DNA of 64,000 nt from a bacterium (lineage in GTDB: Bacteria > UBA8248): assembly GCA_965207065.1 (NCBI GenBank), contig OZ242260.1:3840001-3904000 (forward strand). The letters are read 5' to 3'. Under the pieces are notes generated by a model. The model had not been told where the DNA came from. It made no database searches and was given only the letters and a program-made list of their open reading frames with translations. Numbering within the stretch: the first letter of the stretch is position 1; every line of letters starts with the position of its first letter. The translations under genes were made by a program, and so were the position numbers. Shown one piece after another: positions 5,620 through 47,818 of the stretch.

Positions 5620-5692
5620 GACAACCCGGACCCTCGTCTTTCTCCCGGCGCCGGCGACGCCTGCCCGGCGGCCGGCCTGAGGCTGCGAGAAG

Positions 5693-6268
5693 ATGCCGAT
5701 AGAATTCGACCGGCGGGCTTTCCTGCAAAGGGGGCCTTTCGCATTTATCCAGGCGGTTCTCTCCGAATCTTCCGCCGGTAACGCCGATACGCCCCGCCCC
5801 CCGCTCCGGCCCCCGGGCGCAGCGCCGGAGGAGGAATTCCTGGAGCTTTGCTGCGGCGTCGGCGCATGCGCGGAGGTCTGCCCGGCCGACGCCATCCGGT
5901 TGGTCCCCAGAGAGGGGGATTCGGGAACCCGCCACCCGGTCATCGTCCCCCAGGAGGCCGCCTGCATCGTCTGTGAGGACCTCGCCTGCATGAAGGCCTG
6001 CCCGAGCGGCGCCCTCTCCCTGGTGTCAGTTGAGGAGATCCGTATCGGGCGCGCGCAGGTGAGTCCCGACCGCTGCCTCGCGTGGAGCGGGACGGACCCG
6101 GGGTGCGATTACTGCGTGGACCGGTGCCCCCTCGGGTCAGAAGCCATCCGCCTCGAGCGCGCAGGAGGAGTGCGCGGCCCCGTGGTCGAGAAAGGGTGCG
6201 TCGGGTGCGGCGTATGCGAGTATTTCTGCCCGACGCAGCCCTCCGCCATCCGGGTGTATCCCTGCTGA
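5693..6268 (+). CDS. Second NapG/NapF-like 4Fe-4S ferredoxin
   Basis: DRRAFLQ, LRPPGA, CIVCEDLACMKACP, CDYCVDRCP, CVGCGVCEYFCP. Confidence 0.8.
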   Translation: MPIEFDRRAFLQRGPFAFIQAVLSESSAGNADTPRPPLRPPGAAPEEEFLELCCGVGACAEVCPADAIRLVPREGDSGTRHPVIVPQEAACIVCEDLACMKACPSGALSLVSVEEIRIGRAQVSPDRCLAWSGTDPGCDYCVDRCPLGSEAIRLERAGGVRGPVVEKGCVGCGVCEYFCPTQPSAIRVYPC

Positions 6269-6341
6269 TCCCCGCCGGAAAAGCTGCAAACACTCGCTCT
6301 TCGCTCGCGTCAAACGCTCCCTCACTGGTGTCGGAGTTGTC

Positions 6342-6404
6342 CCACAGGTCGCGACTTCGGACAGGCACGGGGGCCTCGGACAGGCGCGGGGGCCTGTCCG
6401 CTAC
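6342..6404 (-). repeat. GTAG-type REP-like palindrome, copy A (with a partial internal duplication)
   Basis: ccacaggtcgcgacttcggacaggcacgggggcct...gtccgctac, repeated at 6691-6734; minus strand reads GTAG followed by a CGGACAGGC/GCCTGTCCG hairpin. Confidence 0.75.
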
Positions 6405-6420
6405 GGTACTCGCTTTTGAT

Positions 6421-6563
6421 CGTCATTCCGGCGCATGCCGGAATCCAGGTACTTTGCCTTTGTTTCTTTATTTCTTCTGCATTCCCGCCAGTGAATGGGG
6501 GATGAAAAACCGGAGCGACGCCATTCTCCTCGGCTCTGGATTCCGGCTTTCGCCGGAATGACG
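6421..6563. repeat. Inverted pair of CGTC-type REP-like palindromes
   Basis: cgtcattccggcgcatgccggaatccag (6421-6448) and ctggattccggctttcgccggaatgacg (6536-6563) are near-perfect reverse complements, each self-palindromic. Confidence 0.8.
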
Positions 6564-13220: not shown

Positions 13221-14915
13221 GTGGAGCTCAATGGCTCGCAAATCCTTATCGAAGAGTTGAAAGCGGCAGGCATCGAGATGGCTTTCGGCATCCCGGGTGG
13301 CGCCATCATGCCTTTTTACGATGAGTTGATGAAGTCGGATTTCCCTCACATCCTCACACGGCACGAACAAGGAGCCGCGCACATGGCGGACGGGTACGCG
13401 CGCGTGAGCGGAAAAGTCGCCATCGTCGTCACTACGTCCGGCCCCGGGGCCACGAACCTCATTACCGGCCTCGCAAACGCGCAGATGGATTCCGTACCGC
13501 TCATCGCCATTACAGGACAAGTCGCGACCAATATGATAGGGACCGACGCCTTTCAGGAAGCCGATATGTACGGCTGCTCCATTCCGGTCACTAAATTCAA
13601 CTGGCTCATCAAGGATGTCAATGAAATTCAACACGTTACACGGGAAGCGATTCGCGTAGCGACGACGGGTCGACCCGGCCCCGTCCTGATCGATTTTCCT
13701 AAAGACATCCAAATCACCAAAACGGAATACACGCCGCGAGAATCCGCTGAATCCCCTCTTCCGGCTATCAGGGAATATCCCGAACTAGATACCGAAGGAA
13801 TCGACAAACTACTTGAAGCCATAGAGCGGGCCAAGCGACCTGTCATCATTGGCGGCGCCGGAATTATCAAGTCCGGGGCATCCACAGAACTAGTGAAATT
13901 CGCAAAAGCAGCAGGCATCCCGGTCATCAACACATTGCTGGGGCTCGGGGGTTTCCCGGGAACGGACGATCTCTTCCTCGGTATGCCGGGTATGCACGGC
14001 ACGGCCTACGCGAACTTTGCTCTTTGCGAGTGTGATTTGCTCATCAATCTCGGCGCCCGCTTCGACGACCGCGTGACTGGCAAGGTATCGAGTTTTTGCC
14101 CCAATGCGACCATCGCTCACGTCGACATCGACGACGCCGAGATCGACAAGCGAGTGCACACCCATATCCCGATACTCGGGAATGTACGGGACGTGCTTAT
14201 CGCACTCAACGAGCGCCTGACACCCAGAGATTACGATGAATGGCGGCAGACCTGGACGGACTGGAAGGAGAACTATCCCCTTCAATACGACTGGGACGGC
14301 TCCATCAAACCTCAGTACGTGATCGATCAGATTCAGGAAATTACCGAGGGTAACGGCATATACGTGACCGGTGTGGGCCAGCACCAGATGTGGGCGGCGC
14401 AGTTCATCCGCTTCAACGAGCCGAAGACCTGGGTGACTTCCGGCGGTCTCGGCACGATGGGCTTCGGTCTTCCCGCCGCCATCGGCGCTAAATTCGCCCG
14501 CCCGGAGAAAGACGTTTGGCTCATCGACGGCGACGGCAGTTTTGCGATGACGCTCGTCGAACTCGCCACGGCGGCAACATATAACGTCCCTGTGAAGGTC
14601 GCCATCCTGAACAATGCGTATCTGGGAATGGTCCGCCAGTGGCAGGAACTGTTCTTTGAGAAACGCTATTCGCATTCGCATTACCCGGAAAATCCCGATT
14701 TCGCCGCCATCGCAGAAGGCTATGGCGTAAAGGGCATCAACGTTACCGACGTGAATGAAGTGCGGAATTCCCTTGAGACGGCGGCCGAGCACGACGGGCC
14801 AGTGGTGTTGAATTTCCTTGTCAACAAGGAAGAAAACGTCTGGCCTATGGTTCCTGCCGGAGCCGGAAACGATGAAATGCAACTTGCACCCCCCTCCAGG
14901 GAAGCCAAATCATGA
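13221..14915 (+). CDS. ilvB: Acetolactate synthase large subunit, copy 2
   Basis: PGGA, RHEQ, TSGPGATN, RFDDR, GDGSF, GMVRQWQ; AGGAGG RBS. Confidence 0.93.
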   Translation: MELNGSQILIEELKAAGIEMAFGIPGGAIMPFYDELMKSDFPHILTRHEQGAAHMADGYARVSGKVAIVVTTSGPGATNLITGLANAQMDSVPLIAITGQVATNMIGTDAFQEADMYGCSIPVTKFNWLIKDVNEIQHVTREAIRVATTGRPGPVLIDFPKDIQITKTEYTPRESAESPLPAIREYPELDTEGIDKLLEAIERAKRPVIIGGAGIIKSGASTELVKFAKAAGIPVINTLLGLGGFPGTDDLFLGMPGMHGTAYANFALCECDLLINLGARFDDRVTGKVSSFCPNATIAHVDIDDAEIDKRVHTHIPILGNVRDVLIALNERLTPRDYDEWRQTWTDWKENYPLQYDWDGSIKPQYVIDQIQEITEGNGIYVTGVGQHQMWAAQFIRFNEPKTWVTSGGLGTMGFGLPAAIGAKFARPEKDVWLIDGDGSFAMTLVELATAATYNVPVKVAILNNAYLGMVRQWQELFFEKRYSHSHYPENPDFAAIAEGYGVKGINVTDVNEVRNSLETAAEHDGPVVLNFLVNKEENVWPMVPAGAGNDEMQLAPPSREAKS

Positions 14916-15415
14916 GACAAGTCTATTCTATTCTCGTTAACAACCACGCTGGCGTGCTTTCCCACGTAGCAGGCCTTTTCACGCGCCGTGGATACAACAT
15001 CGAAAGCATCGCCGCCGGACCGACGGAGGATGCCACGATAACGCGCATCGTCATCGTCGCCTTAGGCGAGGAAAACGAACTCGACCAGATCGCCAAACAA
15101 CTCCGCAAGCTCTACGACGTGCGAGAGGTTGAGCAAATCTCATACAACCAAGCCGTCACGCGCGAACTCGTTCTCGCGACAATCAAAGCGCCCATTAGCC
15201 AAAGAAGTGAAGTCATCCAACTCGCCAACGCCTTCGGCGCTCAGGTGATCAACATGACTGACGATACTGTAACCCTCGAAGCGAGCGGCAACGATCACAA
15301 GGTCAGAACCCTCCTCAAGGCGTTCGAGGGCTACGGAATATCGCAAATGGCGCGCACGGGAATGATTTCGCTGCCCTACGACGGCATGCCCGAAGATTGG
15401 GAGCCCATCGCATAA
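14912..15415 (+). CDS. ilvN: Acetolactate synthase small (ACT) subunit
   Basis: VNNHAGVLSHVAGLFTRRGYNIES, ARTG; ATGA overlap with ilvB copy 2. Confidence 0.92.
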   Translation: MRQVYSILVNNHAGVLSHVAGLFTRRGYNIESIAAGPTEDATITRIVIVALGEENELDQIAKQLRKLYDVREVEQISYNQAVTRELVLATIKAPISQRSEVIQLANAFGAQVINMTDDTVTLEASGNDHKVRTLLKAFEGYGISQMARTGMISLPYDGMPEDWEPIA

Positions 15416-15936
15416 TGCCCAGAAATTCCAAGGACGATACACATACGATAGCGGTTTTGGTGGAGAACAAATTCGGCGTTCTCGCCAAGGTAGCGAGTCT
15501 TTTCAGCGCCCGCGGCTACAACATCGACAGCCTTTGCGTGGGGGTGACGCAGGACCCGAGCGTATCCCGAATCACTCTCGTCACGCGCGGAGACGAAAAA
15601 GTTCTCGAACAAATCAGAAAACACCTCAGCAAGCTCATCGACACCTTCAAGGTGATGGATATGGGCGAGTCGGACAGCGTCGAGCGTGAAATGATTCTCA
15701 TCAAGATTTCTGCTCCGAAAGCCGCGCGGCCGGAGATTTTTCAAATCATCGACGTTTTCCGGGGCCGCGTCGTTGATGTGTCCACAGATACCATCACCGT
15801 CGAAGTCACAGGAGACGAGGGAAAGATTCACGCCATATTGAATTTGCTCCAACCATTCGGCATCAAAGAGATCGCCCGCACAGGCAAGGTTGCACTCACC
15901 CGAGGGGCCAAAACCCTCAAGGGCGCAAAAAATTGA
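15415..15936 (+). CDS. ilvN: Acetolactate synthase small (ACT) subunit, second copy
   Basis: VENKFGVLAKVASLFSARGYNIDSL, ARTGKVAL; TAATG coupling. Confidence 0.92.
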   Translation: MPRNSKDDTHTIAVLVENKFGVLAKVASLFSARGYNIDSLCVGVTQDPSVSRITLVTRGDEKVLEQIRKHLSKLIDTFKVMDMGESDSVEREMILIKISAPKAARPEIFQIIDVFRGRVVDVSTDTITVEVTGDEGKIHAILNLLQPFGIKEIARTGKVALTRGAKTLKGAKN

Positions 15937-37163: not shown

Positions 37164-37186
37164 TGGTGCCGGAGGCCGGTTTCGAA
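37164..37186 (-). repeat. Distal att site: displaced tRNA-Leu 3' end including CCA
   Basis: tggtgccggaggccggtttcgaa; 13-bp exact core tgccggaggccgg (37167-37179) equals 47660-47672. Confidence 0.88.
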
Positions 37187-37239
37187 TATGCCAGCTAAGG
37201 CATTGTATTTATTAATCTTGCAATTTCAAAACTTTCACT

Positions 37240-37253
37240 TAACCCACGATTTA
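37240..37253. promoter_or_regulatory. Putative integrase arm-type binding site
   Basis: taacccacgattta is identical to 47512-47525 at the other end of the element. Confidence 0.7.
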
Positions 37254-37294
37254 CACCACAAGATTATCATATTTCTCGCTTCTGTTGTGAAATC

Positions 37295-37765
37295 TTATAC
37301 CAAATTCCAAATACCCAAAATAGCACCAACAATGAAAGATAAAAGTCCTAAACCACCTGATACATTTTCCCAACATATCCAATTATTATGGCGTTCATTT
37401 AAATTTCCACACTCTTCATCAAATTTAACTCTACTGATTCTGTCCGCAGAATAATCTTGGGTAAGTTTATTGTGTTTTCTACTTAAGTCCATAAATCGCA
37501 AATACACACTACCATTGATCATAACAGCAAGAACAAGACCTAGGCAAAAACAGGCCATTGGTGGCCAAAGCCAAGCGTCATTATGAGGCTTCGCGGCAGT
37601 TAATACTGCCACTAGGGCACCGCCGTTCATAAAAACAAGATGGCGAATATACATGTATCCTGAAGATATTTCAGCATCAACAATCTTGGATGAGATACTT
37701 TCCGCAACCTCTACAAACTTTCTTTGGTATTCTTCTGGACTTTCAGAAAACCTGTGCTCATCCAT
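37295..37765 (-). CDS. AT-rich cargo membrane protein, function unknown
   Basis: 156 aa, three hydrophobic segments, GGGGAG RBS, visibly lower GC than neighbours. Confidence 0.75.
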   Translation of the reverse strand: MDEHRFSESPEEYQRKFVEVAESISSKIVDAEISSGYMYIRHLVFMNGGALVAVLTAAKPHNDAWLWPPMACFCLGLVLAVMINGSVYLRFMDLSRKHNKLTQDYSADRISRVKFDEECGNLNERHNNWICWENVSGGLGLLSFIVGAILGIWNLV

Positions 37766-37895
37766 AGTCCAAACGCTCCCCTATTTTCAGTCGCCTACCC
37801 TCTCCTTTTAGGCCCTTTTTTTCCGGGGGGGAGTATACACCTTTCGGGAAAGGTTTTCTCGCGTCTTACGCCGTCTCTGCGAGCGTGGCGGCGGC

Positions 37896-38444
37896 CTAGC
37901 TTTCGGCGTCGACTTGGAATGAATCCCCGGCAAGGTCGACGGGAACGCGCTCCATTCGACCCACGGCCTGAACGTCTGGCTGTAGATATGCAATATCGAG
38001 GTCGATTGCGACCCGCTCCTCATATTCATCGTCCGGGATGATCGCGGAAACGTCTCGAACGACTAGCGGATTTCGCACCCGGAAGCGAGCGCCGCCGAAC
38101 GTCCCTTGAATCTCCGCGTCGTTCCTGTCGGCTTCGAGTCGGCCAAGGGGAGACTGCGACCACTTCACGAAGCGCTCCGCCGCCGACTGCGCTCCCGACC
38201 GGTAGAACTGGACGCTGTAGGTCGCAAAGTGAGTCGCCTGCACCGATACCCCTACCTGCCCGTCATCCGCGTCGAAGTAATGCTCTGACGCCTGTCCTGC
38301 TGTTGAATCGGTTATCAGAGTTACGGACGCGAACAACCCAGAGGGGAGCGGCGCGGATTCGTTTCCCGGAATGACGAGGGTCGTGTCGATGCCCGACCCC
38401 TTGGCGACGTAAGTGCGGAGCCTGCGTTCAAGGTTGATGTTCAT
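37896..38444 (-). CDS. Phage neck/tail-terminator-like protein (tentative)
   Basis: 182 aa, ATGA-coupled last gene of the head operon; pattern VIPGNE.AP.P...ASVT...YSVQFY...E.R..IDL.I.Y recalls neck terminators. Confidence 0.5.
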   Translation of the reverse strand: MNINLERRLRTYVAKGSGIDTTLVIPGNESAPLPSGLFASVTLITDSTAGQASEHYFDADDGQVGVSVQATHFATYSVQFYRSGAQSAAERFVKWSQSPLGRLEADRNDAEIQGTFGGARFRVRNPLVVRDVSAIIPDDEYEERVAIDLDIAYLQPDVQAVGRMERVPVDLAGDSFQVDAES

Positions 38445-38947
38445 GCTCGACTTTCCTCAAGCATTTTCTTGCGCAAGTAACAGACCCGCGTCCGCGTTGC
38501 ATTGAACGTCCTACGACCGGAGAAGTGCTTTTGCCACACGTCCGGCCAGGTGCCCGGCGGAACTTTCGGAAACTCGATATGCGCAGCAAGGATTTCATCT
38601 TCCCATTCCTGCCAGTGTCCATCCTCCTCGGCGCTGCCCAGAAAATCGACATCCAACGTCCTAAGCCGTTCCAGTAGAGAAGCTTTGGAGCGACCCAAGG
38701 TAAACGCGAGCGCATCTAGTTCAGATAAGGCTTCATAGTGCTTATGGATAGGCACTGCCTTGCAAGCGAGGAGCGCCGCGTCTTCCTCGGCAGTCCAATC
38801 TTTTCTCGTGGTCTTTGGGTTTTCGATTCCAACCTTTGAGAAACCGTTCCGGCGATATCGGCTGTAGTGCTTATGGCAGAGGCCCCGAGCCGTTTTCACG
38901 CCCCCGCAGCCCTCGATCTCGCAAACCCGGTTGATGATGACCATCAC
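38441..38947 (-). CDS. Cys/His zinc-finger plus Myb/SANT-like repeat protein
   Basis: CEIEGC...GLCHKHY; WTAEEDAALL and WQEWEDEILA repeats; GTGA overlap. Confidence 0.6.
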   Translation of the reverse strand: MMVIINRVCEIEGCGGVKTARGLCHKHYSRYRRNGFSKVGIENPKTTRKDWTAEEDAALLACKAVPIHKHYEALSELDALAFTLGRSKASLLERLRTLDVDFLGSAEEDGHWQEWEDEILAAHIEFPKVPPGTWPDVWQKHFSGRRTFNATRTRVCYLRKKMLEESRA

Positions 38948-40020
38948 GCCGCCTCATCGCCAATGCCTACAGCGGCCATTGCGACGCCGATATCAACACC
39001 CGCCTTGACGAGTTTGTCCACCACTTGGGCGCGGCTCACCATGTCCATGGCGTAGGTATCAAATTTCAGCCGGACTTCGGTTTCCAGCTTCAAGCTGAGT
39101 TCGTTTTCGAGCGCCTTTGCCAAAGGCATGACGACGTTCATATGCCAGCGGCGAACTGCTTCTCTTTGTCCGGTTCCGTCGGCATCGACAAAGAGGCTGG
39201 GAGGGCAACCGCATGCCGCCAGCGTGGCATCGAATGCGCCCTTCCGGATCGCTTCCATCACTTCGGGAGGCGAAGGCCCCAACCGATTAAAAGCCCAGCT
39301 TTTCGCGTCTCGCCCTTCGCCCATTGCGCTGGCGAGATTTTCTAACAAGATGGATTTTCCTCTGGCCCTGCCGATATCAGCCCGGAGAAGCACAAGTGGA
39401 TCGACGGCTTCACCCTCTTTGCCCGACGCGGCGCTCTGCGGCGGAATGACTGACACTTGAGCAAGGGGGCCGGAGACCTCATCCGCTAGGCTCCGTTCGG
39501 TTTCAGATTGCAGTCTCGCAGTCATGGCCGCCCATGACAGAGGCCCCACGCCAACATATCGCTGGCCGGGTGTGCTGCCCCATTTCACGAACACCACGCC
39601 GCTAAAAGGCAGGTGCTTGGTAACGGAAGATGACGGCCCGAACATAGTCGCCCGAACTCGCCACCGATCCGGATGAGGATCACCGTCGTCTTCAAAGTGC
39701 CAACTCGAAACCGGGAGGAGCGAAGCGCTGCCTGCGTGGTCTATGCCGATGTAGTGCATGGATGAACCGCGCCGGATGAGGTCTCTCCCGACCTGCGCGA
39801 GAAACTCCGGGGAGACGGCGTCTCTCGCCCAGCCCAGCCCCTGCACTTCGGCGGATGCGAACGCCCGAGAGAGCGCACCGCTGGCCGCCTCCACCGCCGC
39901 TGTAGACGAAGCGTCCGCCGCCGTGCCAGCCGCCTGCGCTTCGATGAGGCGAACCACGGCGGCGCTGAAATCTCCGCCTGATTCGCGCCTTTCCAGTTTT
40001 CCAAAAGGCCACCACTTCAT
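38944..40020 (-). CDS. Phage portal protein (HK97-like, compact)
   Basis: MKWWPF..ERR N-terminus, DLIRRGS, YVGVGPL, AACGCPPSLF, VMPLAKALENELSLKL; TAATG coupling at 40020. Confidence 0.75.
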   Translation of the reverse strand: MKWWPFGKLERRESGGDFSAAVVRLIEAQAAGTAADASSTAAVEAASGALSRAFASAEVQGLGWARDAVSPEFLAQVGRDLIRRGSSMHYIGIDHAGSASLLPVSSWHFEDDGDPHPDRWRVRATMFGPSSSVTKHLPFSGVVFVKWGSTPGQRYVGVGPLSWAAMTARLQSETERSLADEVSGPLAQVSVIPPQSAASGKEGEAVDPLVLLRADIGRARGKSILLENLASAMGEGRDAKSWAFNRLGPSPPEVMEAIRKGAFDATLAACGCPPSLFVDADGTGQREAVRRWHMNVVMPLAKALENELSLKLETEVRLKFDTYAMDMVSRAQVVDKLVKAGVDIGVAMAAVGIGDEAA

Positions 40021-40346
40021 TAGGTGCTCCTCACAATGACGGCCTTGGTGTGAGAGCCGTTCCATGACTCGCTAGACTCTACCGAATACTCCACGTCATC
40101 GACGCGAACGCGATCCCCTCCAGCGTCGTCATGGGCCGCTTCAAGCACGTCCGCTTCCGGAATGTAGACTTTCCTTCGATGAATGAGCCGGGAGCCTTCG
40201 AGGAGATCAATATCCATGAGCTTGAGCGGCTGGACGCTGGCGAAATACTTCTTTTCCTCTACCGCTCCGGGTTGCCATTCGCCGAATTGATTTCTCTCAC
40301 CCGGCGCTTCGCGCAGCCGTGTGATGATGTCGGGGAAGCGTCTCAT
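40020..40346 (-). CDS. Head-closure (stopper) protein
   Basis: ITRLR...NQFGEW...ASVQP...GDRVRVDDVEYSV pattern; ATGA overlap with the adaptor gene. Confidence 0.7.
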   Translation of the reverse strand: MRRFPDIITRLREAPGERNQFGEWQPGAVEEKKYFASVQPLKLMDIDLLEGSRLIHRRKVYIPEADVLEAAHDDAGGDRVRVDDVEYSVESSESWNGSHTKAVIVRST

Positions 40347-40690
40347 CCGATAGTTCCCGCGCGGTAGACGCGCCAAGGTGCGAGAAGGCTCATCGCGCCG
40401 CTGGCCTTGAGCGCGTTCGTGTTCGTGGTGGCGTAGGCGGTTTCAATGTCGCCGGTCTTCTCACTTCGGATGCTGGGCGAAGGTTGATCTTTGAGCCATC
40501 CCGCGCATCGTATTATTGCTTCGTTGCGAATTTCGAGCGGGGCGTCCGGGGCGTATTTCACAACAAGGCCATAGGCCACCGGGAGGAGGCGCTCGACGAG
40601 AGCCGCGTCGGTTATCTTCAAGGCCTCCGCCAGTTTCTCCGCCGTGATCCCGATGACGGCTTGGGGCGGATCGCCGAAACTCACAGCCAT
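40343..40690 (-). CDS. Head-tail adaptor (HK97 gp6/SPP1 gp15-like)
   Basis: Helical, P..IRNEAII, IRSEKTGD hairpin, C-terminal SLLAPWR. Confidence 0.7.
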   Translation of the reverse strand: MAVSFGDPPQAVIGITAEKLAEALKITDAALVERLLPVAYGLVVKYAPDAPLEIRNEAIIRCAGWLKDQPSPSIRSEKTGDIETAYATTNTNALKASGAMSLLAPWRVYRAGTIG

Positions 40691-41346
40691 CGGCGCGCCC
40701 TCCGGGGAGTGATGAGCGGGGCATCCGCTCTCAGATCGATCTCTGTGCTTCCGTATGCCGGACGGCTAACGATGCTTATCTCGTGCAGGACGGCCTGCTT
40801 CACGACTCGAATTTTGACGCCGGGGTTGCCAACTTCGTCGATGAGTTCCTCGGCATTTTGGACCACGTTGCGGGGAGGGATGCGGAAACCCGGACTCACG
40901 CCTCCTGCCCGGCCCGTGCGGATTTCCTTCACAACGTCCGCCATATAGGAGGGCATATCTTTCTCATCCGGGAGATCAACCTCGAAGCTGAGCGCGTCGT
41001 CTCCGTCCGCCACGCGAGCGGTTTTTCTGAGCATATCGCCTAGGGGCTTGTCGAATGAATGCCCGCTCAAGACGTGAACGTTCGCTCGCTCTAGCTGTTC
41101 TTCGATGATCTCTCTCTGCGCCTTCTCGATTCCCTCCTCGATGACGCGAGCAAGCTCTTTTTGCAGTTCCTGAAATCTTCTTACCTGCCAGCCGAAGGCG
41201 CGGGAGTTGATGCGCTCTTTTCGCACCCGTCCTCTGTCTCGAACTGTCGCCGTTTTTCCATACGGAAATTTTCCGCTGAGAATCCGGGAGGAGCCGCGCG
41301 CCCTGATTTCGAGTTCGCCGTCCAAAATCAAATAAGTTTCCGTCAT
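40681..41346 (-). CDS. HK97-family prohead protease
   Basis: LEIR...LSGKFPY, ERI...AF, LSGH, GGVSPGFR, LHEISIVSRPAY; GAGGA RBS before ATG 41346. Confidence 0.85.
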   Translation of the reverse strand: MTETYLILDGELEIRARGSSRILSGKFPYGKTATVRDRGRVRKERINSRAFGWQVRRFQELQKELARVIEEGIEKAQREIIEEQLERANVHVLSGHSFDKPLGDMLRKTARVADGDDALSFEVDLPDEKDMPSYMADVVKEIRTGRAGGVSPGFRIPPRNVVQNAEELIDEVGNPGVKIRVVKQAVLHEISIVSRPAYGSTEIDLRADAPLITPRRARRWL

Positions 41347-41358
41347 GCTATTCCTCAT

Positions 41359-41437
41359 GGCGCTGGCGGTTGGAGGTAGGAAGGGTGAAGCCGCCCCTCC
41401 ACGGCGCGAGGCCGCCAGCGCCGCACCCTCGCGCCGT
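41359..41437 (-). other. Predicted H-type RNA pseudoknot between capsid stop and protease RBS
   Basis: Two interleaved perfect 11-bp inverted repeats: 41427-41437 with 41401-41411, and 41412-41422 with 41359-41369. Confidence 0.7.
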
Positions 41438-42724
41438 CTAGGTGCTCACCTGTAGCTGTACCTGAGCGTATGCGTCGGGCTGTGTGACGATGATGTCACC
41501 GAGCAGAACGTGCAAGGTGTAGTATCTTTCGGCCTTGGCGCTGCCCGTGTAGATGTCGTCTATGCTCACCTCGTTCCAGTGAGGACAGACGGCCGTCCGC
41601 ATCCCGCCTTCGCCGCCCATCATGGAGCGGCCCATCCGGTAGAGGATAGCTTGCGCGATGTTCGAGGCGGTGTCGGGCATTCTCTTGTTTGTCCAGAATC
41701 CGCCGAAGTGATCCATCGCGTAATCTGAAAACGCCTTGTCTCCCAAGTCTTGTCCGGTCGCATCGCGAAAGGCTTTCATCGCGAGGCGGTAGGTATCGGG
41801 GTTTACGACGATCCCGACCTCTTTGGCGGTCGATGCCCAGAGGCCGTCAATACCACCGGCGAACAGATCAACGAAGTCATCGAAGTCTGCGACGCCGGAC
41901 GGCGTCCCTTGAGGGTCTGTGAGGGCGGCGAACATTCCCTTGAGGTTCGGGGCCGTTCCGTTTCCGTTGATCGCCTGATCGTCCAGCGCATCGGAGAGGG
42001 CGAGGCTCAAGTTCTCTCTGAGGATGCTCTCGAAGTTCTCCTGCCCAACTGCGGCGATATCTTCAAGGGCCAGTTCCAGACGGGCGCTTACGCGCTTCGG
42101 TGTCGCCGTGGTTACGGTGAGAGCGCCAGCGGTCGCGGCGATGGCCGCGCTCTTGTCCTTCGCTTCGGCGGACTGCGAGCCGGTTATGGTCGCGGAGGCG
42201 AAGGTTCCCGACCCGACGCGCGGCATCTGGATTCCCAGCTTAGGCGCAATGCTGTGTGCGAACACGGCGGGCAAAATCGGATCTAAATTTATGCCGACGG
42301 TTCCCGGCGCTTCGGTGATGGCTCTCTTTTCAAGGTCGGGCCGGGGCACGTCGAAAATCTCAAGGGGAATTCCTGAGACGCCAGCCGCTTGGCGAAGTTC
42401 GAGTTCGGCTCCCGCCACCATGCGACCCTGCGCGGCGGCGGTGAAATACTCCGTGAGCTTTGCCCGGCTCCGCAGTTCGATGCGTTCATGCTGCTCTGCG
42501 TCGAAGCCGTTGGCATGGACGATGCTTTTCTTGTCGTCTTCTTCGAGCAGGAGGCGGACGGCGCTTCGGCGTTCGAGGAGCTTCTTTTTCTTCGCCGCCA
42601 GTTCGCGCAGTTCGGTGTCCGCTTCGTCGTTCAACGTCTCCTCACTGAGGAGTTCGGCGGAGCGCGTTTCCACCTGTTCGAGTTCGTCGGCAATTTGCCT
42701 GATTGCTTTCTGGTTTGGTGTCAT
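41438..42724 (-). CDS. HK97-fold major capsid protein with N-terminal coiled-coil scaffold (delta) domain
   Basis: Charged helical N-terminus; TATPKRVSA, LDDQAINGNGT, VVNP, C-terminal QPDAYA. Confidence 0.85.
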   Translation of the reverse strand: MTPNQKAIRQIADELEQVETRSAELLSEETLNDEADTELRELAAKKKKLLERRSAVRLLLEEDDKKSIVHANGFDAEQHERIELRSRAKLTEYFTAAAQGRMVAGAELELRQAAGVSGIPLEIFDVPRPDLEKRAITEAPGTVGINLDPILPAVFAHSIAPKLGIQMPRVGSGTFASATITGSQSAEAKDKSAAIAATAGALTVTTATPKRVSARLELALEDIAAVGQENFESILRENLSLALSDALDDQAINGNGTAPNLKGMFAALTDPQGTPSGVADFDDFVDLFAGGIDGLWASTAKEVGIVVNPDTYRLAMKAFRDATGQDLGDKAFSDYAMDHFGGFWTNKRMPDTASNIAQAILYRMGRSMMGGEGGMRTAVCPHWNEVSIDDIYTGSAKAERYYTLHVLLGDIIVTQPDAYAQVQLQVST

Positions 42725-42756
42725 GGTCTTCCCTCATTTTCGCGAAATGAATATAC

Positions 42757-42795
42757 CTTGACGCAAAGATAGGTGTTTTCGACGAATCCGTCAAG
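42757..42795 (-). promoter_or_regulatory. Promoter of the capsid operon with overlapping inverted repeat
   Basis: Minus strand TTGACG-N17-TATCTT; cttgacg (42757-42763) and cgtcaag (42789-42795) form an inverted repeat. Confidence 0.6.
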
Positions 42796-42907
42796 TAATT
42801 GATATTAAATGAGTTACAGTGATATTAGGTTGGTATCACGGAAGGGAGATGAAAAACTGGAAAAACCCTGATAATCAATTCCTAAATTTCAACAACGTGG
42901 AGGAATC

Positions 42908-43147
42908 ATGCCTCGAAAAAAAGACCCACCGCCGCGCTGCGAGTTCTTAGAATTATGGGAAAATCCTATAACCGGAGAAACAGCACAAATACGTTGTGGC
43001 CGTGCAGCAGGTAACAAAGATACACCGCATATGTGTTCCCCAGGCGGAGAGCATCCGCCAGCACCTAGTGAGGTGGACGAGAACGGCTGGCCAAAATTGT
43101 TTGGCGGTTGGACGATAGAAGAAAGGAGACGCCCTATACGTCCATAA
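42908..43147 (+). CDS. Small hypothetical protein on the strand opposite the element's genes
   Basis: GGAGG RBS, 79 aa, AT-rich upstream region. Confidence 0.5.
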   Translation: MPRKKDPPPRCEFLELWENPITGETAQIRCGRAAGNKDTPHMCSPGGEHPPAPSEVDENGWPKLFGGWTIEERRRPIRP

Positions 43148-43424
43148 TTTCATTCAAGAACATCACCCACTGCTTCTCATCGTGAGTGAGCTTCCTGCGA
43201 TGCTCGTCAACGTGGCATGTTCGGCACAAGGTGCGGATTCCGTCCAAATTATAGGGGTCTCCGCCATCCCAGAGCGGCGGATCGTGATGCGCTTCGAGAC
43301 GTCCTGCGGCTCCGCATTTCGTGCACCGGAAGCCGTCTCTTTCGAAGCACTCACGCCTCGCCCGCGCCCACCTTGCTTGATTCATCGCGGAGTAGTTTTT
43401 CGACCCCGGATGCTTTCGGCTCAC
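43134..43424 (-). CDS. HNH endonuclease (packaging-associated type)
   Basis: RWARAR...RDGFRCTKCG...EAHH...TLCRTCH; GTGA overlap with terL. Confidence 0.88.
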   Translation of the reverse strand: MSRKHPGSKNYSAMNQARWARARRECFERDGFRCTKCGAAGRLEAHHDPPLWDGGDPYNLDGIRTLCRTCHVDEHRRKLTHDEKQWVMFLNEIMDV

Positions 43425-44851
43425 TCACAAAGTCCTCCATATCGCCAATTAGGTTTGGATGGTCTACTCAACTCCCGATAGAACGCTCCAGCCGATAGCG
43501 TTAACGCAGCTGCTACGTCGTCTCTTGCTTCGTTGTTTGCCCCTCGCTTGGAAAGGCGGGTATTACCTTGATCGTCATTCTTCACCAATGCCGCCGATAG
43601 GCTGGCCGTCAAAAGTAATCGGGAGCCATCCTCACATGATAGCGGGCCATCCTTCGCCAACTTTCGGAGCGCTCGAATATCCTCTGCCGCCTCACTCCAG
43701 CGAGCTACCCTAGGCTGTAACGGGATGCCGTTCGTGCAGTCCTGTAGTTCTGCCAGCCGAAAGCGGTCGGAGACGATGACTCCCGGCTCTCCCCACTCGC
43801 TCAAGATGGCACCCACCAACTGCGCCGGGGGTTGAACACGCAATCCTTCCGCTACGCGCAAAGCCCCGGACTGAGCGAGTCTCTGATATGTTCCTTTTGG
43901 AACCCTATCCCGCTTTTCCTGATCGGCCAGCGAGGGGATACCCGGAGCTACGGCCAGCGCCTCGACGCGCCCGGAGCGCCATATTCCCACCGCCGCAGAC
44001 CATGCCCTTCCACCGCCCAGGTCAACTCCCACGAAAGGCAAACCCTCTCGCTTCGCCACCGGACGGGAACATACTCGCTCAAAATCATCGACGGAGAGGA
44101 GCATTGTAGATTCATCCCCGCTAGGACAATTTAGACGATAGCTCAAGAATCGCGCCTTGAGACGAGTATCCCGCCGCGCTTCGTCTCTCTCTGCTAAGAG
44201 TTTCTTTCGGAATTCTGGCGATACCGCCGTAAGTGGATTGCATCGGCGAATCTCCGGCCATTGCTCCCATTTATCTGGGTCTCCTATGAGGGCTTGAACA
44301 TAGGTAGACCCGCCCGTTCCATCATTCACGAGGTCATGCCACCAGCCACCCAGGGACGGCGCGAGAGTTCCAATGAATAGAGCCTTTAGCGGACTTCCCG
44401 GCTTACCCTGAGCGGTCGTGATGCTGTCATATAGTTGCTGCCCGCCTATGACTTCGGCGCTCCCCGGCTCATCGAATATCGCCCACGGACACCCCACTAG
44501 CCCGAAGGACGTTTTCGAGTTGCTCCCGGCTACCCGTAGCCTCGTATTCGTAGGCTCGTGCGTTATCGCGCACCGCGTCGCACTATCAAGAAACCGATAC
44601 CCGCCGAGCGGCTCAAGGGTAGCTCGCGCGAACCTGAAAACGATTCTGCATTGCTCGATTGAACCTGAGAAAAGAACCGACTCCGTTCCCGGACGGAAAA
44701 GAAAATCATCCGGCGAAAGCACACGCGAGACAATATACCCGGCTAGCCATGACTTGCCGTTGCCTCTGGGGATTGATAGCGCCGCCGTATCCACCCCCGG
44801 AGCCGTAGCTTCCTTGATGAAACACTTTTGAAATGGCCGAAGTTCAATCAA
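43421..44851 (-). CDS. terL: Terminase large subunit
   Basis: LRPFQ Q-motif, Walker A IPRGNGKS, Walker B AIFDE, NP, nuclease GVDLG and DDVAAA. Confidence 0.9.
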   Translation of the reverse strand: MIELRPFQKCFIKEATAPGVDTAALSIPRGNGKSWLAGYIVSRVLSPDDFLFRPGTESVLFSGSIEQCRIVFRFARATLEPLGGYRFLDSATRCAITHEPTNTRLRVAGSNSKTSFGLVGCPWAIFDEPGSAEVIGGQQLYDSITTAQGKPGSPLKALFIGTLAPSLGGWWHDLVNDGTGGSTYVQALIGDPDKWEQWPEIRRCNPLTAVSPEFRKKLLAERDEARRDTRLKARFLSYRLNCPSGDESTMLLSVDDFERVCSRPVAKREGLPFVGVDLGGGRAWSAAVGIWRSGRVEALAVAPGIPSLADQEKRDRVPKGTYQRLAQSGALRVAEGLRVQPPAQLVGAILSEWGEPGVIVSDRFRLAELQDCTNGIPLQPRVARWSEAAEDIRALRKLAKDGPLSCEDGSRLLLTASLSAALVKNDDQGNTRLSKRGANNEARDDVAAALTLSAGAFYRELSRPSKPNWRYGGLCE

Positions 44852-44920
44852 GGCGATTCCCCATTACACAAACGAGCCCAACGTCGCCCCTACCTTGTGA
44901 TCGCCGCGCCGCCGGTGCCA

Positions 44921-45070
44921 TCACGCCTTCTTGTATTCCCCGCACCACCACTCCGCCATCACAAAAGGCCAAGTTCTTTTGTCTCCCGGTCTAGGCGGGA
45001 AGCGATGACACTCTCCGTTAATGTTTGATTTTGATTCGTAGTAGGCGCATGACTCGCATTTTCCCTTCAC
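44921..45070 (-). CDS. 49-aa four-Cys protein (absent from the ORF track)
   Basis: Manual translation MKGKCESCAYYESKSNINGECHRFPPRPGDKRTWPFVMAEWWCGEYKKA; GTGA overlap and GAGGA RBS. Confidence 0.7.
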   Translation of the reverse strand: MKGKCESCAYYESKSNINGECHRFPPRPGDKRTWPFVMAEWWCGEYKKA

Positions 45071-45306
45071 GGTATTTCCTCCTCGTGCTCATGGGCGGGT
45101 TGTAGGTGATTCAGCGTGTCCGCTAGCGCGGCGGCGAAGGTCTGGGCGTCCTCGCGACCAAGGCGGCGGGCATATGCCCGGAGAATACCGACGCGGACGT
45201 GATAACTTTTGAGTTCGTGGAGGTGGAGAAGTCGTCCGCACACGTCGCACGTTAGCCACTTGTCTCCAGCTTTCGGGGTGCGCCAGTGGTGAGGTCTACA
45301 CGCCAT
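45067..45306 (-). CDS. Small hypothetical protein, possible Zn ribbon
   Basis: CRPHHW...CDVCG; GGAGG RBS before ATG 45306. Confidence 0.55.
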   Translation of the reverse strand: MACRPHHWRTPKAGDKWLTCDVCGRLLHLHELKSYHVRVGILRAYARRLGREDAQTFAAALADTLNHLQPAHEHEEEIP

Positions 45307-45452
45307 GAGTTCATCCTCCCGCCGCCGATTCAAAAGTAGAACTTCAAAGCCTTTGACTTTCGACTTTGATCTCCGGTTCTGACTTTGAGACTTTCCCTCC
45401 TACCGACCGCTTCTTATATTTCTGAATTTGTCTCTGGTTGTTTCTCTCGCGG

Positions 45453-45509
45453 TGCCTCATTTTTGAGGCGTTAAATTGCGTTTAATGCCTCACTTTCGAG
45501 GCGTTAAAT
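45453..45509. repeat. Two 24-bp palindromic iterons (putative replication origin)
   Basis: tgcctcatttttgaggcgttaaat and tgcctcactttcgaggcgttaaat, 22/24 identical, 33-bp period. Confidence 0.7.
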
Positions 45510-45930
45510 CCTCGCCATCATTAGGGAATAGCAGGTCGATGTCGCCATGCTTGAGGATATCTCCCGTTCTCGCGTTCACTTTCCAAAGCGCCCCCATTTT
45601 CTTCGGGCTAGGCTGTCGAACAATAAATCCCTTGGCCTTGAGGCCAGCTTGCGCACGCTCGATTGCCGCCTTGCTCTTGCCCGTCATATCCCGAATCGCT
45701 TCGTTCGTGATCACCCTGCAATCGTTTCGCCACCCACCTAGCAAGAGCATGGCGGCGAAGACTTTGAACTCGGAATCCGTGAGCCTGAAATAGGCCTCTC
45801 GCATAGGCGCGAATTTACCATCGATGCGTTTACTCTTTTTCCCATTCTTCAAAACCGGCGAGGTTTCCGGAACAATGATTCCATCCGTCTCCGATTGACT
45901 CCGTGATACTCGGCTGGTATCTTTCACCAT
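45490..45930 (-). CDS. Winged-HTH protein, putative replication initiator
   Basis: LTDSEFKVF...ITNEAIRDMTGKSKAAIERAQAGLKAKGFI; iterons at the 3' end. Confidence 0.65.
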   Translation of the reverse strand: MVKDTSRVSRSQSETDGIIVPETSPVLKNGKKSKRIDGKFAPMREAYFRLTDSEFKVFAAMLLLGGWRNDCRVITNEAIRDMTGKSKAAIERAQAGLKAKGFIVRQPSPKKMGALWKVNARTGDILKHGDIDLLFPNDGEDLTPRK

Positions 45931-45944
45931 GATATTTGTTTCTC

Positions 45945-45982
45945 GAAAAGCCCCGATGACTTTGGCCGGTCTGGGGCTTTTC
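45945..45982 (-). terminator. Hairpin between alpA and the initiator gene
   Basis: gaaaagcccc...ggggcttttc 10-bp inverted repeat. Confidence 0.55.
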
Positions 45983-46007
45983 TATTTCTGGGCGGAGAAA
46001 GAAGTCC

Positions 46008-46199
46008 CTAGGCGACTGGGGCCGTAGAGCGCGGACGTGATTCGATCCATGCGCGGATTTCATCTTCGCGCCAGCGAACCGCGCGCGGCCCGATCTTGAG
46101 CGCCTTGGGAAATTCGCCCTCGTCCATGAGACGATAGATTGTTGACTTGACGTATCCGGTGATTTCGCAGACTTGCTTACAGGTGAGCAGCTTTGGCAT
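46008..46199 (-). CDS. alpA: AlpA-family regulator/excisionase
   Basis: LLTCKQV...TG..KSTIYRLM..GEFPK...GPRAVRW...EI.AWI. Confidence 0.92.
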   Translation of the reverse strand: MPKLLTCKQVCEITGYVKSTIYRLMDEGEFPKALKIGPRAVRWREDEIRAWIESRPRSTAPVA

Positions 46200-46308
46200 T
46201 TCGAGTCCACCCCATAAAAAAGAAAGTGAACCTCCGGCCTTCCCAGCGCCAGAGGTCTCCTTTCAGGTCTACAGGGGATAACTAAAATACCTTAATGGAC
46301 TTTATCAG

Positions 46309-47496
46309 TCAATTCCCTCGAATCGAGATCACCTTCCCGCGCTCGCCACCCGCCACATAGCGGCCCCACTGCTCCATCAGGCGCACTCGCTTGGCGAATA
46401 GATCGGAGCGCGCATAAGCCCTTTCCGTGGCGTCCCCGACGTGGTGCGCCAAGCATAGCTCCATGACGGCGTGTTCGGCGTTCGTTTCCTCCGCCGCCCA
46501 CACTCTGAACGATGATCTGAAACCATGCACGACTGCTTTCTCAGCGAGGCCCGTGTCTCTCAGGATTTTTGTTAGGCCCATGTTTGAAATCGGCTTGCCT
46601 TTCCGCACGGGCGACGGAAAAACCAGTCCGCTCTCATCGCCTAGCAGCTTTGCTTTTTCCAGCACGGCCAGAGCCTGATCGCTCAAGGGCTGTCTGTGCT
46701 CGCGTCCGCTCTTTGCGCGGCTGGCGGGGATACGCCACGTCCGCGCCTCGGTGTCAATTTCAGACCATTCCGCCAGCCTCGCTTCCCCAGAGCGGCAAGC
46801 GGTAAGAATCACAAATTCGAGACACGCCTTGGTGCTCATCGACGCTTTACTGCCCCTCACGATTTCAAGCGCTTCGGGAACTTCTGCATACGGGAGCGCC
46901 CGGAAATTCTCCCGGACGGCGGGCATACTCGGGAGCGCGCCGGATACCGCCTCTCCCGCCACGTTCACTTCCACCAGTCCATGCGACAGCGCCCATGATA
47001 GAGTCGCCTTGATCCCCCGTCGCAGTTTCCGGCCCATTTCCGGCTTAGAAGTCCACAGAGGAGTCAAGATGTTCAGCACGTCCTCGCGGCCTACCTTGTC
47101 CACGGGTAGATCGCCGATACGCTGGAAGGCGTGGCGCTCTAAAATCTGCCACCAGTTCTTTCTCACCTTATCGTTGCGCCAGCGCGGGGAGAGGGCCTCA
47201 TGCGTCCGCTTCGCCGCTTCCCGGAATGTAGGAGTCTTTGCTTTGCGTTTCTCCGTCAAGGGGTTATTCCCGTCTGCCACGGCGACCCGATTCTCGAATG
47301 CCTTACGCCTCGCTTTTTCGAGAGAAACGACCGGCCATCCCCCTAGCCCGATATCGCGTCTGCGTCCTTCAATCGTGACTCTTTGAATCCAATTTTTCCC
47401 ACCGGAAGGCGTTACGTTCAAAAAGAGAGTTCCGCCGTCGCTGTAGCGACCCGGTTTTTTGATGCCTCTCACCTTCGCAACTGATAGATTTCCCAT
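46309..47496 (-). CDS. int: P4-type tyrosine integrase with arm-binding domain
   Basis: YSDGGTLFL, GLGGWPVVSL; catalytic R (ACRSGE), K, HGFR, LAH, AY all present. Confidence 0.95.
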   Translation of the reverse strand: MGNLSVAKVRGIKKPGRYSDGGTLFLNVTPSGGKNWIQRVTIEGRRRDIGLGGWPVVSLEKARRKAFENRVAVADGNNPLTEKRKAKTPTFREAAKRTHEALSPRWRNDKVRKNWWQILERHAFQRIGDLPVDKVGREDVLNILTPLWTSKPEMGRKLRRGIKATLSWALSHGLVEVNVAGEAVSGALPSMPAVRENFRALPYAEVPEALEIVRGSKASMSTKACLEFVILTACRSGEARLAEWSEIDTEARTWRIPASRAKSGREHRQPLSDQALAVLEKAKLLGDESGLVFPSPVRKGKPISNMGLTKILRDTGLAEKAVVHGFRSSFRVWAAEETNAEHAVMELCLAHHVGDATERAYARSDLFAKRVRLMEQWGRYVAGGERGKVISIRGN

Positions 47497-47511
47497 GCCC
47501 GTTTTCTCCCA

Positions 47512-47566
47512 TAACCCACGATTTAACCCACGTTCGATCGCGGACTTTAACGGACTCGAACGGACT
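47512..47566. promoter_or_regulatory. Arm-type repeats and 10-bp phased CGGACT repeats
   Basis: taacccacg at 47512 and 47524; cggact at 47541, 47551 and 47561. Confidence 0.65.
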
Positions 47567-47659
47567 TGTCAAGACCCAAAACCGCTTGTAACTAACTGAT
47601 ATATTTATATTTATTGTTTAGGAAAAGACCTTGCCGGTCTTCATCGGACTATAAGGAAA

Positions 47660-47743
47660 TGCCGGAGGCCGGACTCGAACCGGCAAGGGGTTGCCCCCGG
47701 TGGATTTTGAGTCCACTGCGTCTACCAATTCCGCCACTCCGGC
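47660..47743 (-). tRNA. tRNA-Leu(CAA), CCA not encoded
   Basis: GCCGGAGTGGCGGAATTGGTAGACGCAGTGGACTCAAAATCCAC...GGTTCGAGTCCGGCCTCCGGCA; long variable arm. Confidence 0.97.
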
Positions 47744-47818
47744 AGAAAGAAAATGTAACTTAGCCTCTCCTCATGCCTTCTGGCAAGATGTGTCTCGATT
47801 TTTCGCAGCGTGCGAGAC

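Follow-up and report, generated by a model that had tools for sequence, protein, structure and literature searches.

Positions 3,840,001 to 3,904,000 (forward strand) of contig OZ242260.1, from a UBA8248 bacterium, contain a small phage-like island that encodes the head of a virus particle together with one protein of the tail-terminator type. This 64-kb stretch is the window analysed here, and all positions follow its own numbering. The island occupies window positions 37187-47659, that is, 10,473 bp between repeats, and is integrated at a tRNA-Leu gene. From the sequence, a first-pass annotation had proposed that the element is a phage satellite with a three-part neck, and that its terminator may cap the tails, possibly contractile ones, of a helper phage. 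We find that overall reading partly supported.

The head operon and its last gene

The neck genes belong to a tightly coupled operon on the minus strand, which comprises, after the prohead protease, the following:

40343..40690, minus strand: head-tail adaptor, 115 residues (phrog_442 at 7e-4; weak PHROG support)
40020..40346, minus strand: head closure (stopper/connector), 108 residues from ATG (phrog_939 2.8e-7; a TTG start at 40376 is also possible)
38944..40020, minus strand: portal, 358 residues from the ATG at 40020 (PF04860 E-value (E) 6.4e-8, below cut-off)
38441..38947, minus strand: 168-residue zinc-finger plus Myb-like protein (phrog_5351 1.5e-9, residues 3-63)
37896..38444, minus strand: predicted tail terminator of the Pam3 gp12 type (PF23961), 182 residues (Pfam, NCBIfam, profile, AlphaFold2 and Foldseek evidence)

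Reading of the junctions revealed an unbroken series of stop/start overlaps from the protease to the 182-residue gene. The adaptor starts 10 nt within the protease open reading frame (ORF). The stop/start overlap is ATGA between adaptor and closure, TAATG between closure and portal (which sets the portal start at 40020), GTGA between the portal and the 168-residue gene, and again ATGA between the 168-residue and 182-residue genes; GAGGAAAG lies a few bases upstream of the start of the last. The coupling of adaptor, closure and 182-residue gene claimed in the first-pass annotation is thus confirmed, as are their positions, all on the minus strand. The picture of a three-part neck with the 182-residue gene at its end needs amendment: all three neck genes are present but not contiguous, as the portal and the 168-residue gene separate closure from terminator, and the 182-residue gene closes the head operon without closing the island, a 156-residue cargo gene lying 130 nt beyond. 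The adaptor gave no match in the Protein Data Bank (PDB) by profile (A6), and a single-sequence PDB search with it returned spurious matches. The 168-residue protein combines an N-terminal CxxC...CHKH zinc finger with two Myb-like repeats, and in 13 related loci a homologue immediately follows the portal. Because no small terminase was found in the island, this protein is a candidate for DNA recognition or for a small-terminase substitute.

The 182-residue protein and its link to the closure

The 182-residue protein matches Pfam PF23961 ('phage neck terminator protein') with 50.5 bits (E 2.5e-13, residues 5-170) and NCBIfam NF047498 with 44.2 bits (E 1.5e-11). As these matches exceed the curated cut-offs of 27 and 28 bits, respectively, the ORF is no chance frame. 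HMMER, run in full against 1.84 billion representative sequences (its hits carry P-numbers below), recovered 344 relatives at E<=1e-3, 135 at <=1e-10 and one at <=1e-30. When a profile of 87 family members (A1) was compared with the PDB, it matched the XM1 tail terminator (7kjk, 2.1e-8) and the Pam3 terminator (8hdr_G, 2.8e-4); single-sequence PDB searches with the terminator and the closure produced spurious matches only. Alignments A1 and A2 were too variable for search patterns, and the one pattern obtained from the narrower alignment A3, YSVQFYRxG, found no relative in genome contigs. A word-based homologue search added one other terminator and five other closures.

The alignment of the 87 members also served as input for AlphaFold2, which modelled the protein with a predicted local distance difference test score (pLDDT) of 90.5 and a predicted template-modelling score (pTM) of 0.82. 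In a Foldseek search of the PDB, the eight top matches of this model were neck or tail entries of phiTE, Pam3, XM1, Pa193, Bas63, E217, Sf14 and P1, with E from 3.6e-8 to 3.4e-5 and template-modelling (TM) scores of 0.52-0.68 normalised to the query; phiTE 9cc7_F (3.6e-8), Pam3 8hdr_G (9.9e-8) and XM1 7kjk_A5 (2.9e-7) were among them. Siphophage terminators matched far more weakly (T5 p142, 8.7e-4; lambda gpU, 1.2e-3 and TM 0.33). Among the phages with good matches, XM1, Bas63, E217 and Sf14 are presumably contractile-tailed; the PDB titles name a sheath for the Pa193 entry and 'Myoviridae' for the P1 entry, and phiTE and Pam3, as well as Mu, are described as contractile-tailed in the accessible parts of papers and outputs. 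The best structural relatives of the model are thus neck and terminator chains of contractile-tailed phages, in line with the resemblance suggested by the first-pass annotation. In BFVD the best matches were labelled 'neck terminator gp12-like', and the 21 named rows within the first 50 included seven from Myoviridae sp. and three from Siphoviridae sp.

An extended C terminus that joins the sheath sheet marks the terminators of myophages and contractile injection systems as opposed to those of siphophages, according to the accessible text of two reports (PMC11915804; PMC9942802). After the last core strand, every one of the 87 members of A1 continues for 13-33 residues; the window protein does so for 22, modelled with low pLDDT. 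It also keeps the invariant or near-invariant residues of the family, R10, G16, P34, G50, Q79, R82, A85, A89, E142 and R144. A quick tree of the family, in which supports are weak, grouped the window protein with P0003 (support 94; 53% identity) and the terminator of L045, a related locus described below, with P0133 (support 99).

Judged by sequence and predicted structure, the 182-residue protein has the tail-terminator fold and is a member of the Pam3 gp12 family. Of the two findings that the first-pass annotation had named as refuting it, a missing terminator fold and neck proteins grouping with HK97-like siphophage or cf-PICI connectors, neither was obtained. It is like the Pam3 gp12 and XM1 terminators in family (by curated cut-offs), in fold and in its C-terminal extension; its genetic setting differs. 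The gene order in Pam3 is gp12-gp13-gp14, with the terminator directly before the sheath and tube genes, in the part of the report available (PMC9942802). A tblastn search of 50,697 phage records with the window terminator returned a single weak match, MW202455 (Myoviridae sp.). Its homologue (PF23961, 5.1e-26) stands directly before DUF3383 and KPP10_Orf10 genes, which from their position we take to encode sheath and tube, and a Pam3/E217-type cement protein is encoded nearby. The same record (MW202455.1, 3163-4638) encodes a Mu F-like minor capsid protein with a C-terminal ADP-ribosyltransferase exoenzyme domain (PF03496, 4e-18). Whereas the terminator gene of these phages adjoins sheath and tube genes, that of the island follows the portal and zinc-finger genes; neither the island nor the rest of the 64-kb window yielded a sheath or tube gene, and the island has no baseplate gene.

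The closure points less clearly to one tail type. A profile of 22 family closures (A5) matched the head-closure proteins of Sf14 (9c39_E, 4.2e-5) and Bas63 (9mt4_E, 2.1e-4) and, weakly, the Pam3 connector (8hdr_A, 0.019), all from entries in which neighbouring chains also matched the terminator model. In Pfam, E217 gp28 was reached at E 0.08 only, and an Atlas look-up placed the closure with head-tail joining clusters of the PF05521 type (0.95) as well as with the E217 gp28 type (0.93). The motif ASVQP...L.EG.R, which had been taken as a mark of contractile-tailed phages, therefore does not serve as one: the protein that bears it falls in a general head-closure group.

Natural fusions connect the two families. 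Among the best 150 of the 344 terminator relatives, nine are ~270-330 residues long with the terminator match in their C-terminal part (P0007, P0045, P0085, P0097, P0099, P0112, P0114, P0133 and P0142). This part reaches PF23961 in eight of the nine, the exception being P0097, and phrog_939, the PHROG family of the closure itself, was found at the N terminus of five of the eight fusions scanned. Comparison by hhalign of the closure profile with an alignment of all nine gave a probability of 99.4 (E 4.5e-21) over closure columns 8-130. Closure and terminator families are thus fused in nature and therefore functionally linked.

A predicted complex of the window closure and terminator agrees with this link. 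Modelled 1:1 from self-built alignments, the pair scored 0.68 against 0.00 for the best of three controls, with runs agreeing in at least 96% of contacts and a partner pLDDT of at least 77; the mark applied is one that 116 of 157 solved complexes attained, as did two of 215 mismatched pairs, counts that hold only roughly in this setting. The predicted interface has the conserved RN.FGEW loop of the closure (residues 18-24) on one side and, on the other, terminator residues 7, 10-11, 21-26, 29 and 31-32, which surround the conserved VIPGN motif. In Pam3, connector hairpins grip the terminator at its N-terminal loop (PMC9942802, accessible part), and the contact modelled here between the N-terminal segment of the terminator and the closure loop would be akin to it. 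Because such necks have already been solved, the result indicates likeness to them rather than binding of this particular pair.

The rest of the island and its relatives

Outside the neck genes, the island and its borders comprise the following:

37167..37186, no strand: attL candidate, a 20-nt copy of the tRNA-Leu 3' end (18/20 identical; direct repeat D5 with 47660-47679)
37295..37765, minus strand: 156-residue membrane-protein cargo gene, outside the head operon (G+C content 0.382; no family)
40681..41358, minus strand: prohead protease, S78, HK97 type (PF04586 4.5e-15)
41438..42724, minus strand: major capsid protein, HK97 fold family (PF05065 1.7e-8; phrog_10 2.5e-14)
43134..43424, minus strand: HNH endonuclease (PF01844 1e-5; phrog_589 2.2e-13)
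43421..44851, minus strand: large terminase, TerL (phrog_9 at 2.9e-31)
45490..45930, minus strand: 146-residue winged-helix protein, weakly like the N terminus of replication protein O (TIGR01610 2.9e-5, PF04492 0.024, both below cut-offs)
46008..46199, minus strand: AlpA-type regulator/excisionase (PF05930 at 9.6e-18)
46309..47496, minus strand: tyrosine integrase (PF13356, PF22022 and PF00589, each ~1e-17 to 1e-18)
47659..47744, minus strand: tRNA-Leu(caa), the integration target, 3' end = attR (ARAGORN; Rfam tRNA 58.8 bits; repeat D5)

In transcription order the genes are integrase, AlpA, the winged-helix gene, two small cysteine-rich ORFs, TerL, HNH, capsid, protease, adaptor, closure, portal, the zinc-finger/Myb-like gene, the 182-residue gene and the cargo gene. 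Pfam and PHROG searches of the island turned up no gene for a sheath, tube, tape measure, baseplate or fibre and none for lysis, so that the terminator is its sole tail gene. The deposited phages nearest in TerL are Escherichia, Enterobacteria, Cronobacter and Enterobacter phages (for example HK75, mEp390, mEpX2 and ENT39118), at ~27% identity. No homologue of the 146-residue winged-helix protein was detected in the related loci described below. An Rfam scan of the island matched the tRNA alone, and a promoter/terminator scan was uninformative.

The 156-residue cargo gene between terminator and attL stands apart in composition, with a G+C content of 0.38 compared with 0.55-0.61 for the head genes and 0.603 for the 182-residue gene. 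Its membrane-protein product has no meaningful match to any family in Pfam, PHROGs or NCBIfam and no homologue in the 77 related loci; the Atlas gives only hypothetical clusters plus a weak lead to a Pycsar TM effector (PycTM, 0.79). This AT-rich gene may be defence or exclusion cargo. Just within each island end lies a 25-nt direct repeat (37235-37259 and 47507-47531; 84% identical) with the core AACCCACGATTTA; the two copies could be arm-type sites of the integrase. Between the HNH and capsid genes of the otherwise tightly packed operon, a gap of 410 nt (42725-43133) is without a convincing ORF. Rfam found nothing in this gap, which could hold a packaging (cos) site or a promoter.

Islands of this kind are widespread. 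Scoring of 8000 candidates gave at least 1188 homologues of the portal; the best 120 are 61-72% identical and 349-384 residues long, and many homologues lie on contigs of ~10-11 kb. Scanning one genome per species with the portal alignment (A4) identified 77 related loci (L002-L078), all in records of metagenome-assembled genomes and with up to three copies per genome. By record title they belong to Gemmatimonadota, Alpha-/Gammaproteobacteria, Chloroflexota, Acidimicrobiia, Acidobacteriota and Thermodesulfobacteriota, plus Candidatus Binatia, and hence to at least six phyla, across which the portals are 45-65% identical. The layout common to these islands of ~10 kb is integrase, TerL, HNH, capsid, protease, adaptor, (closure) and portal. 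The portal match extends over at least half its length in 68 of the 77 loci; an adaptor precedes closure or portal in 54 of these 68, and a closure of the window's type occurs in 18. Portal, capsid and TerL are all present in 39 loci, 36 of which keep the order TerL, capsid, portal. Where the ends could be mapped by a tRNA or a repeat, in ten loci (L002, L006, L008, L013, L015, L018, L034, L036, L048 and L051), the island ends 286-1350 bp past the portal. Neither portal nor closure had a tblastn match in the 50,697 deposited phage genomes, and the literature searched held no description of this ~10-kb island family.

The relative that does carry a terminator, L045 from an Alphaproteobacteria genome, begins with tRNA-Pro, the terminator (PF23961 3.5e-15) and an overlapping closure gene, and continues with TerL, a transposase, HNH, capsid, a small AAA protein, protease, adaptor, portal, excisionase and integrase, with no other tail gene. 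The transposase is of the DDE type and is inserted between TerL and HNH (5198-6538, minus strand); following the island, at 13399-15714 on the plus strand, a DruA (Druantia) domain is fused to transposase-like domains. Two further loci have a different gene after the portal, HK97 gp10-like and annotated as 'tail completion or Neck1' (L055 11011-11337 and L057 11037-11462; phrog_5 3.2e-11 and 2.5e-8). A candidate terminator at L043 12001-12579 was set aside and is kept as a lead only: its Mu gp37 match in Pfam (E 7.5e-4) is below the cut-off, and it has neither PDB support nor profile similarity to the gp12 family. L031 shares its post-portal genes with L043. When compared by hhalign with the profiles of terminator and closure, the other post-portal ORFs of L031, L043, L055 and L057 showed no similarity (probability <=1.7). 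Judging from gene content, the family core is that of a head-only satellite, to which a tail-side neck part would be an occasional addition.

A P-loop AAA protein of ~140-160 residues, missing from the window island, is encoded between capsid and protease in several relatives (L008 8810-9232; L013 8412-8855; L024 8784-9224; L027 8798-9226; L045 8726-9163; L046 8735-9166; L057 8622-9101; L077 4557-4994).

Proposed capping of helper tails and the alternatives

Phage-inducible chromosomal islands that form capsids (cf-PICIs), such as EcCIEDL933 and KpCIDSM30104, carry a head and packaging gene set with adaptor and connector and are without tail or lysis genes; their heads are completed with helper tails, adaptor and connector deciding the fit, as far as the accessible parts of the reports go (10.1101/2025.02.11.637232; 10.1101/2022.09.08.507074; PMC10085698). 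On this point the first-pass annotation, which had credited known cf-PICIs with adaptor and connector only, agrees with those papers. The cf-PICIs described in the available text of one of them use long non-contractile tails and are delimited by a size criterion of ~10-18 kb (10.1101/2025.02.11.637232). The SatelliteFinder paper, in its accessible part, treats tail profiles as forbidden, places cf-PICIs only in Proteobacteria and Firmicutes, and mentions 73 cf-PICI cases rejected for a single tail gene (PMC10085698). The window element likewise is a small integrated island, of 10,473 bp, with integrase, attachment site and AlpA-type regulator, with TerL, HNH, portal, protease, HK97-type capsid, adaptor and connector, and with no tail or lysis module. 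It differs in the presence of a tail terminator, in the lack of a recognised small terminase or primase-replicase (there is only the weakly RepO-like winged helix), and in the place of the portal, which here follows the closure toward the operon end, whereas cf-PICIs have portal and closure in the opposite order. The hosts of its relatives, moreover, span at least six phyla compared with the two of cf-PICIs.

P4-type satellites exploit P2-like phages and finish with contractile tails from the helper, and P4, which remodels helper capsids, is not known to encode capsid, portal, neck or terminator proteins. The element proposed here would be like P4 in using contractile helper tails and unlike it in having head, neck and terminator genes of its own. 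A search made without subscription journals and supplements found no report of a satellite-encoded tail terminator; in one satellite/helper paper the terminator is located in the helper, AH14a. What would be new is a satellite carrying a tail terminator, capsid-forming satellites with adaptor and connector being already known.

We propose that the island is a capsid-forming satellite of the cf-PICI kind that would make HK97-type heads and whose own terminator would cap the contractile tails of a helper and key them to satellite heads, a proposal that we consider evenly poised between right and wrong. In a cell in which a contractile-tailed helper is growing, a hexamer of the satellite terminator would replace the helper's terminator and cap the helper tube and sheath through its core domain and its extended C-terminal strand. 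Its N-terminal segment, around VIPGN, would then be offered to the RN.FGEW loop of the satellite closure. Tails finished in this way would be keyed to satellite heads and perhaps no longer fit helper heads, which would interfere with the helper as well. The identity and coupling of the genes, the ends of the island, the fold and family of the terminator and the occurrence of natural fusions are established here; dependence on a helper, a contractile helper tail and incorporation of the terminator into helper tails are conjectural. In Pam3 and phiTE the terminator is described as joining tube and sheath first, heads docking afterwards at the closure-terminator interface (for Pam3, the accessible part of PMC9942802), and for this reason replacement of the helper's terminator on the tail is the simplest model.

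Several observations weigh against this proposal. The head and packaging genes are nearest, at ~27% identity, to those of HK75, mEp390, mEpX2 and similar phages, which we take to be lambdoid siphophages; the three Siphoviridae sp. rows among the 21 named BFVD matches leave room for a non-contractile helper; and the closure, grouped by sequence with head closures in general, those of siphophages included, is not diagnostic of tail type. Small terminase and primase-replicase were not recognised in the island by Pfam, PHROGs or NCBIfam, divergent forms being possible. No helper prophage lies within the 64-kb window, which outside the island is all housekeeping (genes for purine, branched-chain and aromatic amino-acid synthesis, LptD and ATP synthase). 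When the terminator-family hidden Markov model was run on every ORF of at least 50 residues in all loci, it found one of the 77 relatives (L045), besides the window and the MW202455 phage locus (L001); the terminator is therefore an accessory gene and not a family feature. Five relatives (L012, L015, L016, L017 and L051) have closures 47-50% identical to that of the window and no terminator, so this closure evidently works without a satellite-borne one. Finally, the natural fusions imply that closure and terminator are added as one unit in some phages, which fits assembly on the head side better than a cap added on the tail side.

That last point underlies the strongest alternative, a third neck ring built on the head side: the terminator would be added to the closure ring, and heads bearing adaptor, closure and terminator would join helper tails that lack a terminator. 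Nine natural proteins fuse the two domains, and one polypeptide cannot serve two separate assembly lines; the place of the terminator gene in the head operon, coupled to portal and closure genes, suits this arrangement, as does the predicted closure-terminator contact, which passed its controls, its likeness to solved necks notwithstanding. Unterminated tails, however, are not expected to exist as a stable pool. Moreover, the terminators of Pam3 and phiTE go to the tail, and head and tail join at the closure-terminator interface (PMC9942802 for Pam3, in its accessible part). We consider a head-side ring unlikely.

Two readings would leave the protein without a necessary part in satellite particles, and we regard both as improbable, to a like degree. 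The protein might act on the helper only, poisoning tail completion or head-tail joining and lowering helper yield. A foreign terminator would be expected to block the docking of helper heads, and the gene is an accessory one beside a cargo gene at the island end; yet it is coupled to the structural operon and not to that AT-rich cargo gene, the partner predicted for it is the closure of the satellite itself, and such interference is compatible with capping of helper tails by the satellite terminator rather than exclusive of it. Alternatively, the gene might be a passenger acquired from a helper by recombination, with no role in the satellite. Its rarity among the relatives and its position at the variable end of the island would be accounted for, but a passenger would hardly be expected to have an intact ORF with the conserved residues of its family, a start formed by an ATGA overlap behind the GAGGAAAG motif, and the G+C content of the head genes, or to recur in L045 at a different position and again coupled to the closure gene. 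Least probable of all is that the island is not a satellite but a prophage remnant stripped of its genes for tail and lysis, or a particle-forming locus that has become domesticated: dependence on a helper is conjectural and no small terminase or replicase was recognised, but dozens of loci share a compact tail-less layout that includes an integrase and tRNA-linked ends, many portal homologues sit on contigs of about island length, and portal and closure are unmatched among deposited phages. Operon coupling, gene conservation and the recurrent layout thus make the interference-only, passenger and decayed-prophage readings less likely.

Capping of helper tails by the satellite terminator can also be put in a bolder form, which we hold only tentatively. 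The island would then be the first capsid-forming satellite of contractile-tailed phages, with its own terminator re-keying helper tails and withholding them from helper heads, and it would be a variant of a large undescribed family of ~10-kb satellites, in at least six phyla, whose members occasionally extend the neck into tail-side parts (a gp12-type terminator here and in L045; a Neck1/HK97 gp10-like protein in L055 and L057).

The capsid-forming satellites known so far take over tails that are already complete, and all that they adapt is the adaptor and connector on the head side. If the proposal is correct, a cap supplied by the satellite extends its share of the particle into the tail by one protein, offers a simple route to tails that are exclusive to the satellite, and points to contractile-tailed helpers. 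Islands of this sort would presumably be discarded by detection models in which tail genes are forbidden. The fused closure-terminator proteins raise the question of which assembly line adds them, and the 77 related loci, with several copies per genome and hosts in at least six phyla, amount to natural experiments on head-tail compatibility.

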